Below are positions 17,412-62,303 of a stretch of 64,000 nt of DNA, piece after piece. The stretch is from positions 168 to 64,167 of the forward strand of contig JAULZZ010000122.1 in the NCBI GenBank assembly GCA_032117095.1, in the 5' to 3' direction. The DNA comes from Paenibacillus sp. GTDB lineage: Bacteria > Bacillota > Bacilli > Paenibacillales > YIM-B00363. Position numbers and translations under genes: made by a program. Each line of letters starts with the position of its first letter. The stretch's first letter is position 1. The notes under the pieces are model-generated. The model had not been told where the DNA came from. It saw nothing but the letters and a program-made list of their open reading frames with translations, and ran no database searches.

Positions 17412-17495
17412 ATCCCCTATCGAGTAAAACGCCTTTTGCTTTTCCGCAAAATGCAGCCTGCTGTACGTATGGTTTTAATCAGTGTTTCATATGGG
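17412..17495. repeat. One-armed family-1 element (subfamily B)
   Basis: cctatcgagtaaaacgccttttgcttttccgcaaaatg...gtacgtatggttttaatcagtgtttcatat. Confidence 0.65.
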
Positions 17496-28806: not shown

Positions 28807-28933
28807 ATACGAATTGCGCATGGGGAAACATATGCACTGAGGGCTCCTTCTGCGGGAAAGCAAAAGGGATTTTAACGGGGACAGCAAGGCGTAGTCTTTC
28901 CGTGAGGGATGTGTGTTCAACTCGTGTTTATAC
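28807..28933. repeat. Family-1 element, subfamily B
   Basis: catacgaattgcgc...ctccttctgcgggaaagcaaaagggattttaacgggga...ctcgtgtttatac is related to 61046-61159. Confidence 0.6.
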
Positions 28934-38063: not shown

Positions 38064-38230
38064 TGTGTTTGTCTATTGAAAGCAAAGGCAACGGGCATCC
38101 GTGATGACTGTACTGTGTACATCGGTTATGGCGATGCCCCACATAACAGTGCAGTGGATATGCATGGGGTAGACATCGTGTGCGTATACAACTCCGCGTG
38201 TCAACACCACTATCCCACAGAAAGGCATAG

Positions 38231-38313
38231 TCGTTTTGCCTCGGGTAAAACGCCTCTTGCTTTCTCGCAAAAGACAGTCCGCTGTATCGATGTTTTCCAC
38301 AAGCGATTCGTAT
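38231..38313. repeat. One-armed family-1 element (subfamily B) between citZ and icd
   Basis: tcgttttgcctcgggtaaaacgcctcttgctttctcgcaaaagacag...tcgatgttttccacaagcgattcgtat. Confidence 0.65.
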
Positions 38314-38353
38314 GACCTCGTATGATTCTACTCAAAGGAGTGCCTTTCCATTT

Positions 38354-47789: not shown

Positions 47790-48893
47790 TTGTCTGCTGC
47801 CCAAGCCCCAAAAGAATTGCGTGCCAAAGTCCGTGTAGCAATGGTGTATGGGGGCATGTCCTCAGAGCATGAAGTTTCTCTGGCCACCGCCAGAGCGGTG
47901 CTCAATGCATGGGATTTTGATCGGTATGAGGTGTATCCGATTTATATTGATCCGACAGGGTATTGGGCGCGCGGTTCACAAATTCACCAACCGCTCGGTG
48001 CACATAGCACATTGCGATTTGACCGCACTACGGCACAAAATGGGATCACGTGGTTGATGGAACAAGGGGCATGTGACCTCGTTTTTCCGTTGCTTCATGG
48101 AGCCAATGGGGAGGACGGCACGGTGCAAGGATTGCTCGAACTCTTGCGTATTCCTTACGTTGGGTGTGGTGTGTTGGCTTCCGCAGTCGGTCTCGATAAA
48201 GTCGTGATGAAACAGCTCTGTCAGGCGCACGGATTGCCTCAATGTCGTTTTGTGCATTTTACCCGCACGCAGTGGGAGCGAGACGGCGAGGCGTGCATAC
48301 GTCAGATCGAAAATGCGATAGGGTATCCGTGTTTTGTAAAGCCTGCCCAAGCGGGATCCTCTGTGGGGATTTCCAAAGTATGCGAGGGGGCGCATCTCCA
48401 CGCAGCGATCGTCGAAGCGTTTCGGCACGATGAGAAAGTGCTTATCGAGGAAGCGATGGTTTGTCGTGAGATCGAAGTCGGCGTATTGGGCAATGAACAC
48501 GTGCGTACTTCTGTGGTCGGTGAAATTGTATGTGCACATGAATTTTATGATTATGAGGCCAAATACGTTTCTTCTACCACGCAGATGGTCATCCCGGCAA
48601 GACTACCAGAGACGGTCGTTGAGGACGTACAGCGGTTGGCGGTGCAAGCGTTTGCACTCATCGGAGGGACAGGATTGTCTCGGGTGGACTTTTTCTATCG
48701 TGAAGAAGATCAAGCCGTATTCCTCAATGAGATCAACACGATGCCAGGATTTACACCGCTTTCGATGTATCCCCAACTTTGGTTGCATACGCAGATGACG
48801 TATCGTACACTGCTCGACACATTGATTGCGCTGGCCTTTGAGCGATATGAGACGAGACAACAACATATAGCGCAAAATCAAGGCGTTTCATAA
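47790..48893 (+). CDS. ddl: D-alanine--D-alanine ligase
   Basis: VAMVYGGMSSEHEVSL, HGANGEDGTVQGLLE, EINTMPGFT. TTG start after AAGGGGGA. Confidence 0.9.
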   Translation: MSAAQAPKELRAKVRVAMVYGGMSSEHEVSLATARAVLNAWDFDRYEVYPIYIDPTGYWARGSQIHQPLGAHSTLRFDRTTAQNGITWLMEQGACDLVFPLLHGANGEDGTVQGLLELLRIPYVGCGVLASAVGLDKVVMKQLCQAHGLPQCRFVHFTRTQWERDGEACIRQIENAIGYPCFVKPAQAGSSVGISKVCEGAHLHAAIVEAFRHDEKVLIEEAMVCREIEVGVLGNEHVRTSVVGEIVCAHEFYDYEAKYVSSTTQMVIPARLPETVVEDVQRLAVQAFALIGGTGLSRVDFFYREEDQAVFLNEINTMPGFTPLSMYPQLWLHTQMTYRTLLDTLIALAFERYETRQQHIAQNQGVS

Positions 48894-49000
48894 ACGAAAG
48901 GGAAGGAAATATGTAGACGACCGTTCGGGTATGCACTTGCTTTTTTTGGCGTTTTGCGGTACGTTGTACGTGCGAGATGGGCAATAGACGATCGAGATGA

Positions 49001-49798
49001 ATGGGGATGAATGAGTTGCCTACGAATAGCAAGGGGTTATTACAAGACAAGGTGATCGTGGTCATGGGTGTAGCCAATGAACGGAGCATTGCATGGGGCA
49101 TTGCGCAGTCATTGGCGTCCCAAGGGGCGACACTCATCTTTACATATGAAAGTCCGCGCGTCGCTGAACGGGTGCGCAAACTTGCCGATACGATCGCGCA
49201 GGCGACGGTGCTCGCTTGTGATGTGACCGACGATGCACAGCTCGATGCATTGGCCATGCAGGTAAAAGAGCAGTTTGGTGTTTTGCATGGGATTGTACAT
49301 GCGATCGCCTTTGCAAATAAAGAAGATTTACACGGATTGTATGTGAATACATCGCGTACGGGATATGCCTTAGCGCAAGATATTAGTGCCTACTCACTCG
49401 TTGCAGTGACGCAGCGATTGTATCCGCTCATGACGAATGGGGGGAGCATTGTGACGATGACGTATTTGGGGGCAGAACGCGCCTTGCGAAATTATAACGT
49501 CATGGGAGTCGCCAAAGCGGCGTTGGAGGCGAGTGTGCGGTATTTGGCGTTGGAGCTCGGCGCACATGACGTGCGTGTGAATGCCATTTCCGCTGGCCCG
49601 ATTAAGACGTTGGCCGCCAAAGGGATTGGCGATTTCAATGCAATTTTGCGCCAAGTCGAAGAGAAATCCCCATTAAAGCGTACGACGGATGCTTCCGAGG
49701 TAGGCGATACGGCGTTGTTTTTGATGAGTCCGTGGGCGAGGGGCATTACGGGCGAAGTCATTTATGTGGACAGTGGATACCATATCGTGGGCGTATAG
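49001..49798 (+). CDS. fabI: Enoyl-[acyl-carrier-protein] reductase (NADH), FabI type
   Basis: VVMGVANERSIAWGIA, and the SDR-like catalytic region YNVMGVAKAALEA. Confidence 0.9.
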   Translation: MGMNELPTNSKGLLQDKVIVVMGVANERSIAWGIAQSLASQGATLIFTYESPRVAERVRKLADTIAQATVLACDVTDDAQLDALAMQVKEQFGVLHGIVHAIAFANKEDLHGLYVNTSRTGYALAQDISAYSLVAVTQRLYPLMTNGGSIVTMTYLGAERALRNYNVMGVAKAALEASVRYLALELGAHDVRVNAISAGPIKTLAAKGIGDFNAILRQVEEKSPLKRTTDASEVGDTALFLMSPWARGITGEVIYVDSGYHIVGV

Positions 49799-49892
49799 CG
49801 TAACAATACAGTGTTTGATGGCGCGTGTGTGTGGAAGATGGGGGACATGCAGGGCATGCGCGCTAGATGGGTTGGGATAAGGGGGGGGACAT

Positions 49893-50732
49893 ATGGAACG
49901 TGACGATCGACAATCGTCCGTCGTAGCGACGAAATCGTATACCGCAGTTGCGATCAGTACGGCGGCGAAGGCAGGGGAATGGATCAGGAGAAAGTTCGGT
50001 TCTGCGATCACGGTACAGACTAAGCGATCGTGGCAAGATTTGGTCACCGAAGTTGACCAAGGGGCAGAAAAGCTGATTCGAAACTACATTTTGACTTATT
50101 TTCCCGATCACGTCTTTTGGGGAGAAGAAAGTGTCTATGCCTCTTCCACGACAGCGATGACGGATTTCACTGCACAGGAATATGTGTGGATCGTAGATCC
50201 CATCGATGGGACGACGAATTTTGTGCACGAACTTCCGATGTATACGATATCGATTGCGTTGGCGCATCGTGGGGAAGTGATCGTCGGGGTTGTGTATGAT
50301 CCGATGCGTGACGAAATGTTCGTTGCCGAACAGGGCAAAGGGACATACGTTGGAGGAAAACGTGTGTTTGTGTCGAAGGATGTGGATTTGCAACACAGTT
50401 TGGTTGCGGGAGGATTTCCAACCGAGCACACCCAAAAGTTGCCGCTTGCCTTGCGTCAGTTGACGGCGGTCGCCCCTCACGTGCGCAATGTGCGTGCACT
50501 CGGTTCGGCAGCGTTGCATTTGGCCTATATCGCCTCAGGGCGACTTTCAGGGTATTGGGAACCAAACTTACAGCCATGGGACGTGGCAGCGGGGGTATTG
50601 CTCGTCCAAGAAGCAGGGGGGAAGGTGACGGCGCTGTCAGGAGAACCGTATCGGTTGACGACACGGGATGTGCTGGCGACGAATAGTCACATTCACGAAG
50701 AATTATTACGTATTTTGAGCCGCATCGTCTAA
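49893..50732 (+). CDS. Inositol monophosphatase family protein (SuhB/YktC-like)
   Basis: WGEES, WIVDPIDGTTNFVH, WDVAAG. Confidence 0.85.
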   Translation: MERDDRQSSVVATKSYTAVAISTAAKAGEWIRRKFGSAITVQTKRSWQDLVTEVDQGAEKLIRNYILTYFPDHVFWGEESVYASSTTAMTDFTAQEYVWIVDPIDGTTNFVHELPMYTISIALAHRGEVIVGVVYDPMRDEMFVAEQGKGTYVGGKRVFVSKDVDLQHSLVAGGFPTEHTQKLPLALRQLTAVAPHVRNVRALGSAALHLAYIASGRLSGYWEPNLQPWDVAAGVLLVQEAGGKVTALSGEPYRLTTRDVLATNSHIHEELLRILSRIV

Positions 50733-50740
50733 TCTCATAC

Positions 50741-50944
50741 TCATAAGAAACATTGTTTGAATACAGGAATCCTGCTGGTTAAAAATCCCTTTTTTAGCAA
50801 AATGTAGCCCTATAGGACACTCTATAAACACGTTTGTAAAAAATCACCTTGCCACAAACAAATGATTTTTTGTGCATGTTTGTGCGTGTGATGGGTTTTA
50901 TAGTGGCGCCCTCTGCATCGATGTTTTTAATCCGTGTTTCGTAC
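50741..50944 (-). repeat. Family-1 MITE-like element interrupted by a family-2 element
   Basis: The left part ctcataagaaacattgtttgaatacaggaatcctgctggttaaaaatc and the right part ctctgcatcgatgtttttaatccgtgtttcgta are contiguous in other copies. Confidence 0.75.
50815..50910 (+). mobile_element. Family-2 inverted-repeat element nested in the family-1 copy
   Basis: ggacactctataaac...aaaaaatca(ccttgccacaaacaa)tgatttttt...gttttatagtggcgcc. The termini are inverted and the centre is an A-run/hairpin/T-run. Confidence 0.7.
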
Positions 50945-51017
50945 TGCGGCATGCATAGGCAAAGTGGCGAGGGCGTACCGAACATCTGTGGTAGGAACAG
51001 CGGAAGGGATGACGCAA

Positions 51018-51779
51018 ATGAATGGATGGTTTATTACCGGTACGGATACAGGCGTCGGAAAAACGGTCGTTACCTCGCTTTTGGCAGCCGTTTTTCAAAA
51101 ACGAAACGCACAACAACACCCAGATGCTCCACAGACCATTTGCGTGTGGAAACCAATTCAAACGGGCGAACCGTGCGGTGCGATGTCTTCAGATAGCATG
51201 CGTTTGGTTGCGGGGAGCGGGATTGCGCAGACGGATGAACAGACGGCAACGTTTACGTTTGAGCACCCCTTAGCACCATGGATGGCAGCCTTGCGCGTCG
51301 GTCAAAAAGTATCTTATCAGTTTCTTGTCGATGAAGGGCGAAAACGGTTGCGTGCGTATGATTATACGTTGATCGAAGGGGCAGGAGGGCTGGCTGTTCC
51401 TTTGACGGAACACCATCTGCTTAGTGATTTGGTCGTTGCGTTGAAGTTGCCTCTGCTTATCGTCGCCCGCGCTGGCGTGGGTACGGTCAACCATACGTTA
51501 TTGACGATTCAAGCGGCGCAACGCGTACACATCCCCATTGCAGGGGTCATCTTGAATGATTGTATGCCATTAATGCAAGACATCGCATACGAAAATGCAC
51601 AGATGGTCGAACGGTTTGGTGGCGTAAAGGTGTTGGGGATTTTGCCGCGACTGGACGAAGGAATGTGCCCGCAGACGCTTGCCCAGTGGGAGGCGTGGCG
51701 CATGCGTGGCGTGGCGATGATGGAACAACATATCGCATTGGACAAGTTGTGGAACGAGCGAAAGCAGGTGAACGCATGA
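51018..51779 (+). CDS. bioD: Dethiobiotin synthase
   Basis: FITGTDTGVGKT P-loop. GGAAGGG lies 9 nt before the ATG at 51018. Confidence 0.85.
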   Translation: MNGWFITGTDTGVGKTVVTSLLAAVFQKRNAQQHPDAPQTICVWKPIQTGEPCGAMSSDSMRLVAGSGIAQTDEQTATFTFEHPLAPWMAALRVGQKVSYQFLVDEGRKRLRAYDYTLIEGAGGLAVPLTEHHLLSDLVVALKLPLLIVARAGVGTVNHTLLTIQAAQRVHIPIAGVILNDCMPLMQDIAYENAQMVERFGGVKVLGILPRLDEGMCPQTLAQWEAWRMRGVAMMEQHIALDKLWNERKQVNA

Positions 51780-52786
51780 CCGCAGTAAGCGAAGTACATA
51801 CAGACACGTCACTATGGGATACGTATGCTACGATGGCGCTACAAGGGAAAAGATTGTCCCCCTCGCAAGCGTTGTCTGTCTTACAGGCAGACGATCGGCA
51901 ATTATTGTCCTTGTTGCACGCAGCGTATCGTGTACGTTATTTTTATTATGGAAACAAAGTGAAACTAAACGTGATCATGAACGCAAAGTCGGGATTGTGT
52001 CCTGAAGATTGCGGATATTGTGCGCAGTCTATCGTATCGACAGCGCCGATCTCCAAGTATCCGTTGCTCGATCGCCAAACAATCATTGATGGAGCAAAAC
52101 GTGCCTTGGAACGACAAGTCGGGACGTATTGTATCGTGGCGAGTGGACGGGGTCCGACGAATCGGGAGCTCGAACACGTTATCGAGGCAGTGGCGGAGAT
52201 CAAGGCGACGATGTCGCTCAAGATTTGTGCTTGCTTGGGCATCCTCAACGACGACCAAGCGGTGCGCTTAAAACAAGCGGGGGTCGATCGCTACAACCAC
52301 AACCTTAACACGGATGCCTCGCATTTTTCCAACATTACAACGACACATACGTACGACGATCGCGTGCGCACCGTCGAGACGGCGACGAGGGCGGGGATGT
52401 CTCCGTGTTCGGGGTGCATTGTCGGGATGGGTGAAACGGATGAACAACTCATAGATGTCGCCTTTGCATTACGTGACCTGCACGCCGATTCGATCCCTGT
52501 GAATTTTCTGCATGCGATTGCGGGGACCCCACTAGAACACGTCGATGCACTCAATCCACGGCGTTGCCTAAAAATATTAGCACTCATGCGCTTTGTTTGT
52601 CCGACCAAAGAAATTCGGGCGTCAGGGGGGCGTGAAGTGAATCTCCGTAGTTTGCAACCGCTTGCTTTGTACGCCGCAAATTCAATTTTTATCGGGGATT
52701 ATTTGACGACTGCTGGACAAGCGTATACCGCAGACCATCAGATGATCGCCGATATGGGATTTGAGATCGAGACGTGTGCGTTGTGA
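51776..52786 (+). CDS. bioB: Biotin synthase (radical SAM)
   Basis: CPEDCGYC cluster motif and a YNHNLNT segment. The ATG overlaps the bioD stop (ATGA). The upstream ORF portion (51560-51775) is spurious. Confidence 0.9.
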   Translation: MTAVSEVHTDTSLWDTYATMALQGKRLSPSQALSVLQADDRQLLSLLHAAYRVRYFYYGNKVKLNVIMNAKSGLCPEDCGYCAQSIVSTAPISKYPLLDRQTIIDGAKRALERQVGTYCIVASGRGPTNRELEHVIEAVAEIKATMSLKICACLGILNDDQAVRLKQAGVDRYNHNLNTDASHFSNITTTHTYDDRVRTVETATRAGMSPCSGCIVGMGETDEQLIDVAFALRDLHADSIPVNFLHAIAGTPLEHVDALNPRRCLKILALMRFVCPTKEIRASGGREVNLRSLQPLALYAANSIFIGDYLTTAGQAYTADHQMIADMGFEIETCAL

Positions 52787-52790
52787 CGGC

Positions 52791-53996
52791 ATGAATACGT
52801 TTTTCGATAAAATTACGGTCTCATTACAACAGTGGGATAGGCAAGGGCGCAGGCGTACGTTGGAGGAAACCGCACAACCGTCAGATGCATTCGTCGTGCG
52901 AGAAGGGCGCACGTTGCTCAATTTGGCTTCGAATCGGTATTTGGGCGCGTTGGCGGTTACTTCAGATGAAAAAAGTGGAGAAGGGACACCCAAAAGGAAA
53001 CGTACGCATGGCGGAGGGGCAGGGTCTTCTCGACTTATCGTGGGGACAGACGAGCAGACGCTGGCGTTTGAGTGTGCATGGGCGCAGTTTAAAGGGACGG
53101 AAGCGTGCTTGATGTTTGGCAGTGGATATGCGGCGAACGTGGGCGTGGTCGCAGCGCTTGCCGATCGGCATACGGTCGTGTTTAGTGATCGACTCAATCA
53201 TGCGAGCATCATAGATGGCGTCGTCTTAGCGCGTGCACAGCTCAAACGGTATCGTCACGGCGATGTGGTGCATTTGGAACAATTGCTCGCACATACGCCA
53301 CCGCACGTACGCAAATGGATTATTACGGATGCGGTATTTAGCATGGACGGCACCGTGGCACCGTTGCCACAACTCGTCGCACTCGCCAAAGCGTATGGCG
53401 CAGCACTCATGGTCGATGAGGCGCATAGCGGAGGGGTTTTCGGTGATGAAGGGCAAGGGCTCGTGCATGCGATGGGCTTGACGGATGACGTGGATGTGAT
53501 CATGGGCACGTTTAGCAAGGCGTATGACAGCTATGGGGCATATGTCGCCGGCCGTGCGGACGTGATTGATTATTTGGTCCATACGGCAAGAAGCTTCATG
53601 TATTCGACCGCTTTGCCGCCGCTTGTGGTGGCGATGACGACGGAGCACGTACGCCGTGCACAAAAGGAAGCGTGGCGTCGTTTGGCGGTACAGACGCATG
53701 CGCAGACGTTACGCACCCGTTTGGTCGAGGCGGGATTTTCTCTCCCCTGTGCACATACGCCATGGTACAGTGGCATCGTACCGATCGTGGTGGGGGACAA
53801 TGGGCAGGCATTACGGTTTGCACATGAATTGCAGCAAGTGCATGCCCTGTGCGCCGTAGCGATTCGGCCACCGACCGTGCCAGAACGTACGGCGCGTGTG
53901 CGCCTCTCTTTGATGGCGACGCATACGGAGGAGCAAATGTGTCGTGTCGCCGAGGCACTTGTGTCGTCCGCACAACGTTTGCATATGATTCCGTGA
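52791..53996 (+). CDS. bioF: 8-amino-7-oxononanoate synthase
   Basis: GSGYAANVG, VDEAHSGGVFG, GTFSKAY (PLP lysine). Confidence 0.88.
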   Translation: MNTFFDKITVSLQQWDRQGRRRTLEETAQPSDAFVVREGRTLLNLASNRYLGALAVTSDEKSGEGTPKRKRTHGGGAGSSRLIVGTDEQTLAFECAWAQFKGTEACLMFGSGYAANVGVVAALADRHTVVFSDRLNHASIIDGVVLARAQLKRYRHGDVVHLEQLLAHTPPHVRKWIITDAVFSMDGTVAPLPQLVALAKAYGAALMVDEAHSGGVFGDEGQGLVHAMGLTDDVDVIMGTFSKAYDSYGAYVAGRADVIDYLVHTARSFMYSTALPPLVVAMTTEHVRRAQKEAWRRLAVQTHAQTLRTRLVEAGFSLPCAHTPWYSGIVPIVVGDNGQALRFAHELQQVHALCAVAIRPPTVPERTARVRLSLMATHTEEQMCRVAEALVSSAQRLHMIP

Positions 53997-61045: not shown

Positions 61046-61159
61046 CATACAAAATGCGTATTAAAAACAGAGACGCAGGGGGTTCTCTTTTGCGGGAAAG
61101 CAAAAGGCGGTGTCACCGAGGAGGACGATGGATCGGAATATGGATGCGTATCGTGTATG
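61046..61159. repeat. Family-1 element, subfamily B
   Basis: catacaaaatgcgtattaaaaacagagacgcagggggttctcttttgcgggaaagcaaaaggcgg...gcgtatcgtgtatg. Confidence 0.65.
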
Positions 61160-62122: not shown

Positions 62123-62156
62123 ATGCGAATGACGTGTTCAATACATCCGATTGGGC

Positions 62157-62223
62157 AACACTCATTTTTCGAGAAAGAAAACGGCATCCCTCTGTATAGA
62201 TGTTTTGAATAGGGGGTTCGTAT
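62157..62223. repeat. Half family-1 element
   Basis: cactcatttttcgagaaagaaaacggcatccctctgtatagatgttttgaatagggggttcgtat. Confidence 0.6.
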
Positions 62224-62303
62224 GAGTCTGATGCACCATATTGTCATGGCATTTTGAAGAGGATCCGATTGCAACACGTTTTTTGGGGAGGATGAACATT
62301 CAG

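Follow-up and report, generated by a model that had tools for sequence, protein, structure and literature searches.

A nested pair of MITEs between an inositol-monophosphatase-like gene and bioD

The window, i.e. the whole 64,000-nt stretch of DNA analyzed here, belongs to a 1.74-Mb draft genome of 157 contigs (91.5% complete, 49.7% G+C). At the locus under study, a gene for an inositol-monophosphatase-like protein is followed by bioD, the first gene of a bio cluster. The 286-nt spacer between the two ORFs (50733-51017) consists mostly of one nested block of 205 nt (50741-50946), in which a family-1 MITE is interrupted by a family-2 MITE (Table 1). A Pfam Inositol_P match was obtained on the identical product of the upstream ORF in a contig of the independent Logan assembly of run SRR22423862. 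The same assembly contains both junctions of the nest at 100% identity, so that the nest is not a binning or assembly chimera. The Logan contig terminates within the right family-1 terminal repeat, and an exact-protein look-up of BioD returned no second contig.

Table 1. Features of the nested locus (window positions) and family-2 insertions at a second family-1 site (contig positions)
Feature	Position	Strand	Detail	Basis
Inositol-monophosphatase-like gene (279 aa)	49893-50732	+	upstream gene; stop codon TAA at 50730-50732	ORF list
Left outer 3-bp target duplication of the family-1/composite element	50741-50743	+	TCA	family-1 flank profile T-N-A outside TAC...GTA
Family-1 MITE, left arm	50744-50810	+	model positions ~2-72	alignment to 10 window copies; HMM match after healing
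Left 4-bp duplication copy of family 2	50811-50814	+	TATA; TCTA in most sister composites	alignment of ten composites; flank table of 69 family-2 copies
Family-2 MITE	50815-50911	+	97 nt; in the nine-copy composite core clade	nhmmer, E 1.8e-26
Right 4-bp duplication copy of family 2	50912-50915	+	TCTG, family-1 model positions 73-76	composite alignment; flank table
Family-1 MITE, right arm	50916-50943	+	CATCGATGTTTTTAATCCGTGTTTCGTA	alignment to window copies; healed HMM match
Expected right outer 3-bp duplication	50944-50946	+	CTG, mismatched to left TCA	sequence; flank profile
bioD, dethiobiotin synthetase-like	51018-51779	+	downstream gene, first of bio cluster; alternative start at 51009	ORF frame; sequence
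Second-site family-2 insertion in CCTATTGGTTAAAA	C19:38207-38412		TTG; model positions 35-40	
Second-site family-2 insertion in CCTATTGGTTAAAA	C6:31250-31456		ATTG; model positions 35-40	
Second-site family-2 insertion in CCTATTGGTTAAAA	C11:2607-2812		TTAA; model positions 35-40	

A preceding sequence-only reading of the window had proposed that a family-2 element lies within a family-1 element, and this was borne out: in silico removal of the 97 nt together with one copy of the 4-nt duplication restored a full-length family-1 match (model positions 1-104, E 3.1e-19). The insert begins at 50815, as had been stated, but ends at 50911 instead of 50910 and hence measures 97 rather than 96 nt. It also has inverted termini of its own, as had been stated; these (GGGCACC.../...GGTGCCC) are family-2 terminal repeats. 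The left one, GGACAC-TCTATAAAC, differs from the family-2 end GGGCACCTCTATAAAC by one substitution and one deletion, and the right one reads TTTATAGTGGCGCCC. In the surrounding family-1 copy, the terminal repeat of the left arm (TAAGAAACATTG) shows two mismatches to the consensus TACGAAACACTG, and the outer duplication (TCA vs CTG) has decayed.

Alignment of the junctions defined the family-2 duplication as 4 bp long, with TATA on the left and TCTG on the right of the window copy. The TATA-containing sequence noted previously at both junctions does not represent a target (TA) duplication: the TATA on the left derives by mutation from the 4-bp duplication, which reads TCTA in the sister composites, and the TATAG on the right lies inside the family-2 terminal repeat.

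In a second genome of the same genus (G001), bioD starts with GTG and overlaps the stop codon of the upstream gene by 4 nt, leaving no spacer at all. The overlap of the flanking genes in G001 indicates that the 286-nt spacer of the window is mostly derived from insertion. At the flanking genes G001 is only about 71% identical at the DNA level (71% for the inositol-monophosphatase-like orthologue) and does not represent a strict empty allele of the window locus. For the window locus, this gene junction without spacer was the only orthologous counterpart to an empty site. The overlapping inositol-monophosphatase-like gene and bioD of G001 (locus L002, G001:C195, 1110-2659) are located downstream of a FabI-like gene. 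From their sequence context, the bio genes of G001 look co-transcribed with the genes upstream. In the window, a consensus scan detected no promoter-like site before bioD.

Copy number and target duplications of the two families

A profile built from the ten window copies yielded 313 nhmmer matches to family 1 in the genome, of which 209 were near full length; with all filters switched off, 318 near-full matches were found in the 1.74 Mb. Family-1 elements are non-coding, about 102 nt long and end in TAC[T/G]AAACAC...GTGTTT[A/C]GTA. The flanks of 139 full copies read T-N-A on both sides (left: T 0.86, A 0.93; right: T 0.91, A 0.78), and C is favored before the left and G after the right T-N-A. 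This profile indicates a 3-bp TNA duplication in a CTNAG-like target. In the copies inspected, the middle base of TNA was equal on both sides, which is expected of a duplication and not of an extended inverted repeat; individual duplications include TAA, TTG, CTA and TTA. The density of family 1 amounts to about one copy per 5.5-8 kb of genome.

Family 2 is represented by 94 non-overlapping copies (profile search, E<=1e-4), 69 of them full length. These elements are likewise non-coding, with a length of about 98 nt and the ends GGGCACCTCTATAAAC...GTTTATAGAGGTGCCC. They are flanked by a 4-bp duplication, which is perfect (4/4) in at least 16 of the 69 copies (TTTA, CTTA, ATAA, CAAT, ATTA, TAGA, TTAA, TTAT, TAAA, TACA, TTGA and TCAA) and matches at 3/4 positions in many others. 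The targets are T-rich and TTAA-like. A 2-bp duplication model (CT/TG/CA) was dropped in favor of 4 bp after the 69 copies had been tabulated. Most of the ~94 copies are located outside family 1. The insert at the window locus accordingly belongs to a separate family and is not a normal variable core of family 1, in agreement with the sequence-only reading.

With about 210-320 and about 94 copies, respectively, in 1.74 Mb, far more than chance would produce, both families show the traits of MITEs: terminal inverted repeats (~16-25 bp), a fixed duplication length and small, non-coding, dispersed copies. For family 1, mobility is shown directly by a filled and an empty site. The gene of an ISAs1-type transposase (367 aa) is intact at C89:3938-5041, with ends (CAGGGCAAAAGCATTTAC) unrelated to either family; a second copy of this gene on contig C6 is split by a family-1 element (C6:42229-42332) and also truncated downstream. 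The filled site on C6 reads GAGTTGAG-TAA-[TAC...GTA]-TAA-ACACTTG, compared with the intact GAGTTGAGTAAACACTTG on C89, so that the TAA duplication is apparent. Taken together, the terminal inverted repeats, the fixed duplications (3-bp TNA and 4 bp) and this filled/empty pair confirm the earlier statement that these repeats represent DNA that is, or once was, mobile.

Further repeat families or subfamilies occur in the window at 17420-17493, 22303-22404, 38214-38315, 62151-62224, 2-114, 26190-26272, 28825-28906 and 61064-61146. They have in common an ...GTTTCGTAT-like end or a GCGGGAAAGCAAAAGG hairpin, and free-standing family-2 copies on contigs C90 and C47 (two) sit in the context of these repeats.

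Ten composites with a common insertion site

Searching the genome at the DNA level with the window locus and aligning the matches revealed ten composites, on contigs C122 (the window), C147, C74, C39, C54, C37, C35, C136, C28 and C52. The search for further nested copies that the sequence-only reading had recommended was thus productive. Its observation that the two family-1 arms are contiguous in all other copies is correct within the window, but does not extend to the whole genome, where nine more copies are interrupted.

In all ten composites, the family-2 element is inserted at family-1 model position ~75/76 and in one relative orientation. In nine of them (all except C28), the fourth base of the left duplication is A (8/9) or T (1/9), whereas that of the right duplication is invariably G (9/9), giving the consensus TCTA ... 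TCTG. None of the perfect family-2 duplications ends in G. The two copies of a target duplication being identical at the start, this common mismatch argues for one founder insertion followed by one mutation rather than for nine separate insertions.

The family-2 cores point in the same direction. In a maximum-likelihood tree of the 69 full-length family-2 copies, the nine composite cores group in a single clade, to the exclusion of all free-standing copies (SH-aLRT 84). Mapping the composite label onto this tree required two changes, compared with a mean of 9.6 after shuffling, and none of 500 shuffles reached a value as low. Constraining all ten cores to group together was not rejected (p-AU 0.74). 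Among the ~60 family-2 copies of other lineages, at most one (C28) is found at the composite site. The core lineage is therefore tied to the location, and since the target is chosen by the transposase, common to all family-2 lineages, and not by a non-autonomous element, the location appears to have been inherited.

The composite on C28 differs from the others in that its left junction carries six extra family-1 bases (GTATGG) and its core falls outside the nine-copy clade. This makes at least one additional event close to this site likely, and C28 may represent either a second event or a rearranged copy. Perfect outer 3-bp duplications are retained in C54 (TCA), C35 (TGA), C136 (TGA) and C28 (TCA). 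The inner family-2 ends showed 5.7 edits in composites and 4.5 in free copies, a difference that was not significant (p 0.07).

The family-1 arms of the composites speak neither for nor against a single origin. Arm identity among composites was 74.6-75.7%, compared with 76.4-76.7% for random family-1 pairs, while the cores are 82% identical; arm and core distances did not covary among the composites (Mantel r -0.02, p 0.53). When the composite arms were constrained to one clade, excluding the insertion-site columns, the cost was 28 lnL (p-AU 0.26), and three random sets drawn from the 58 plain family-1 copies with TCTG at the site cost 20, 45 and 90 lnL. An initial AU comparison, in which the composite-arm constraint outperformed the free quick tree by 18 lnL and random sets of ten cost 43-62 lnL, was discarded, as its signal did not survive the removal of the insertion-site columns and the use of site-matched controls. 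A region-wise comparison likewise found no arm segment that was more alike among composites than in site-matched controls.

A signature was detected close to the left junction. Position 69 in the left arm is G in 8/9 composites compared with 10/58 site-matched plain copies (p 5e-5), a value that survives correction for roughly 150 tests, and positions 67 and 71 are enriched likewise. This signature fits inheritance of the junction region and is equally compatible with transposition of the unit and with short-tract conversion. For the central variable segment of the composite arms, at least two variants exist (ATCCCTTTTTTCTCG and ATTACTGTGMTTTCTCG), which calls for an ancient origin, for recombination or for more than a single event.

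Nesting occurs in both directions

For a census of nestings, each element was excised in silico and its flanks were scored again with both profiles. Excision of family 2 restored full family-1 hosts at 13-14 sites. Family 2 within family 1 comprises the nine-copy clade, C28, three insertions at a second site (CCTATTGGTTAAAA, Table 1) and one weak match (C19:11495). The three second-site insertions have one orientation and lie within 5 nt of each other; their cores belong to three family-2 subclades, suggesting that they arose from independent events. Overall, family 2 entered family 1 in at least four or five separate events.

Family 1 was also found within family 1 (C90 with the duplication TTG, C44, C81 and C38) and within family 2 (C77 with CTA and C117 with TTA, both perfect 3-bp duplications), and one case of family 2 within family 2 was detected (C110). 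As nesting is reciprocal, both families must have been active over overlapping periods, and no order at the family level can be read from the window copy.

A third element splits a family-1 copy at C73:12310-12690. It has the ends CAACAGGTTAAG...CTTAACCTGTTG and a 9-bp duplication (GTTTGAATA), and a family-2 copy with an ATTG duplication is located at its right edge. The CTTAACCTGTTGACATTGG end of this element also precedes another family-2 copy on the same contig (C73:37795).

Distribution of the families and search for a transposase

A search of 151 genomes of the order detected family-1 DNA in this genus only, with three matches in G001. A BLAST search with one family-2 subfamily gave matches in this genome only. 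The family-2 terminal-repeat pattern was found 54 times in this genome and four times in G001, and at chance level elsewhere among 401 genomes; in G001, a full family-2 copy lies about 45 nt from a family-1 copy. The presence of both families in G001 indicates that they predate, or crossed, the split of the two species. Compared with G001, a massive expansion of both families is seen in this genome only. The genome itself is small (1.74 Mb at 91.5% completeness, i.e. ~1.9 Mb as a whole), with other genera of its family ranging from 2.7 to 7.2 Mb; in the congener G001 (1.4 Mb, 91%), end matches number only about three for family 1 and four for family 2.

Pairs of terminal inverted repeats 250-4000 bp apart in the genome corresponded to neighboring MITEs only and yielded no autonomous partner. 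A search of the 91% complete genome with five transposase Pfam families detected ISAs1-type DDE genes only, whose ends differ, and nothing for the four IS5/IS1182/Harbinger-related families PF13586, PF05598, PF13359 and PF13751. In 400 genomes of the order, no transposase with matching ends was detected, nor was an autonomous partner at the fetched loci of other phyla or at the locus of the Paenibacillaceae MAG REEB470. A full-text search of the literature did not retrieve the terminal inverted repeat sequence.

We also scanned 185,579 species genomes with the family-2 terminal inverted repeat GGGCAYCTCTATAAAC. The matches were mostly chance singles, accompanied by MITE-like pairs. In these pairs, the ends GGGCACCTCTATAAAC/GTTTATAGAGGTGCCC bound MITE-like elements of 99-461 nt with unrelated inner sequence and 4-bp duplications of the TTAA/ATAA/TAAA type. 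A 161-nt element with family-2 ends is present in at least eight copies in a Brocadiaceae MAG (loci L043, L045, L054, L061, L086, L101 and L107). Family-2-type ends were furthermore found in Streptococcus suis (99 nt; L090, L098), Treponema (120 nt; L048, L064) and Pseudomonas oleovorans (152 nt; L029), at the loci L053, L068, L092 and L093, and in Cyclobacteriaceae and Planctomycetota. The occurrence of common ends in such different bacteria places the family-2 end in a widespread transposon lineage.

Origin and spread of the composite

The common site and orientation, the imperfect duplication and the core clade make it most likely that the nesting was a single ancestral event that took place in another copy. 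We therefore favor, as the probable course, one nesting event followed by transposition of the composite as a unit. The sequence-only reading had concluded that family 2 inserted after this particular family-1 copy; with site and orientation common to ten composites, and duplication and core clade to nine, this local order is not supported. The window locus probably received a pre-formed composite, which most likely arrived, or was converted, as such.

The sequence of events that we infer would have begun with a family-2 MITE inserting once at model position 75/76 of an ancestral family-1 copy. A mutation of one base in the 4-bp duplication would have followed, so that the left copy reads TCTA and the right one TCTG, and the composite with its intact outer family-1 ends would have spread to nine or more loci. 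This multiplication would most likely have proceeded by cut- or copy-and-paste through a trans-acting DDE transposase serving family 1, putatively of the IS5/Harbinger type as judged from duplication length and target; gene conversion of resident family-1 copies would be the less likely route. One of the descendants would have entered the junction between the inositol-monophosphatase-like gene and bioD. On the single-origin reading, family 1, or at least its ends, was active after the nesting, although the opposite might be read from the nest. The changes in both its family-1 and its family-2 ends suggest that the window copy is old and probably immobile now. Within the operon, it is presumably transcribed through.

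An explanation by repeated insertion, which corresponds to the sequence-only reading and in which a family-2 lineage independently hit the same spot of nine or ten resident family-1 copies, including that of the window, in the same orientation, appears unlikely to us. It would account for arms that resemble site-matched family-1 copies picked at random and for cores that are more alike than the arms; moreover, three family-2 lineages did hit another family-1 site in one orientation, a small element regularly targets another one in Haloquadratum (PMC3119063), and nested MITE multimers of rice and maize were judged independent insertions in the account given by PMC5172404. Such a course, however, leaves nine copies with one common mismatch in an otherwise faithful 4-bp duplication, and the fourth base of the target would be G, which is absent from the perfect duplications. 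The nine cores form one clade without any free-standing member, other lineages have at most one copy (C28) at the site, and a MITE cannot encode its own target choice. In its stronger form, this explanation would make the family-2 sublineage a specialized parasite of family 1 that reinserts in one orientation at one internal site, which we consider quite doubtful. If true, it would represent element-on-element targeting in a bacterium, similar to that of SMR-A on PATEs, and could disable or remodel family-1 elements.

A single nesting may also have spread by homologous recombination or gene conversion into resident family-1 copies, without any transposition of the composite. Identical junctions, orientation and core clade alongside heterogeneous distal arms would follow from such a process, as would a composite signature limited to ~5-10 nt left of the junction. 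The proximal-right arm, however, shows no excess similarity, and conversion tracts were not directly evident. Stretches of 30-70 nt with ~75% identity, such as these arms, are a poor substrate for homologous recombination. We regard this route as improbable. Least of all do we expect the insert to be a functional module (an operator, promoter or structured RNA) that forms the variable core of some family-1 copies, an idea that is very hard to reconcile with the terminal inverted repeats that the insert itself possesses, with the 4-bp duplications that accompany it at ~80 sites without relation to family 1, and with the same terminal repeat bounding unrelated inner sequences in other phyla. In its favor, the inner ~60 nt of family 2 are well conserved and the block is located directly upstream of a biosynthetic operon. 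Scanning positions 48000-53000 against Rfam (E<=1) gave no match, and the reading of the block as a structured RNA was dropped. A regulatory module was dismissed as well: a consensus scan of 50600-51100 revealed no promoter or terminator within the element, and the RNA of the nested block, which would form a hairpin within a hairpin, did not fold better than shuffled sequences (z -1.23).

Relation to known mobile elements and nested repeats

Elements of the IS5 / PIF-Harbinger group create a 3-bp TNA duplication or, in the IS5 group, a 4-bp YTAR-like duplication (ISfinder descriptions). Both families described here resemble MITEs of this group: they have terminal inverted repeats, no coding capacity and a high copy number, and their duplications comprise TNA in a palindromic CTNAG for family 1 and 4 bp at TTAA/YTAR-like targets for family 2. 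From duplication length and target preference only, with no matching-end transposase found, both families would be of the IS5/Harbinger kind.

Nested small repeats are already known from plants, archaea and pneumococci, and the window case is a further example. For maize and rice, PMC5172404, citing Jiang & Wessler 2001, summarizes that the nested MITE multimers were interpreted as independent insertions. In this account, the plant multimers likewise consist of short non-coding elements with terminal inverted repeats that lie within each other, each with its own target duplication; Tourist-type elements have a 3-bp TNA/TWA duplication like that of family 1, and nesting was used to read insertion preference. 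Unlike these multimers, nine of the ten composites appear to go back to one event and to have spread as a unit or by conversion, and their host is a bacterium. Each plant nest being regarded as a separate event, the three nests at the second site and C28 look independent in a comparable manner.

In pneumococci, nesting among the BOX, RUP and SPRITE repeats was detected by the same approach of in silico healing (Croucher et al. 2011, PMC3049150). In contrast to the composite described here, the pneumococcal repeats have unrelated sequences and ends, and no amplifying two-family composite was described (PMC3049150). BOX is modular by virtue of tandem boxB units and not of nesting (PMC3049150). 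In Haloquadratum, 192 cases of a mobile element within a mobile element were reported, and SMR-A regularly hits PATEs (PMC3119063). The insertion of SMR-A of Haloquadratum walsbyi into PATEs and IS605-type elements is similar to our case in that small repeats repeatedly occupy a preferred position (PMC3119063). SMR-A, however, inserts without duplicating its target and hits near-terminal palindromes in a large number of independent copies (PMC3119063), whereas the composites have a 4-bp duplication and their recurrence follows one core lineage, which is best explained by inheritance of one event. The combination typical of SMR-A, i.e. no duplication and independent host copies at one site, was thus not observed.

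The word 'nested' does not occur in a 2024 review of prokaryotic MITEs (PMC10969869). Against this background, it is a somewhat unusual point that the nested pair itself became a multi-copy unit.

Implications for the reading of nested elements and for the genome

A nest of two MITEs cannot safely be read as 'B came after A' at the locus where it is found. As a nest can become a transposable or copyable unit, any use of nested copies as a clock should be preceded by a check for common junctions. The composite does not alter the general view of MITE function; it is ordinary selfish DNA, with a two-part form that probably arose once and was copied thereafter.

Repeats of this type break assemblies, as illustrated by the Logan contig that ends in the element, and should be masked before intergenic regions are interpreted. 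For the organism, these results reveal a small, uncultured Paenibacillaceae-like genome that is heavily loaded with two interacting MITE families, and in which MITEs split former operon junctions, such as the one between the suhB-like gene and bioD.
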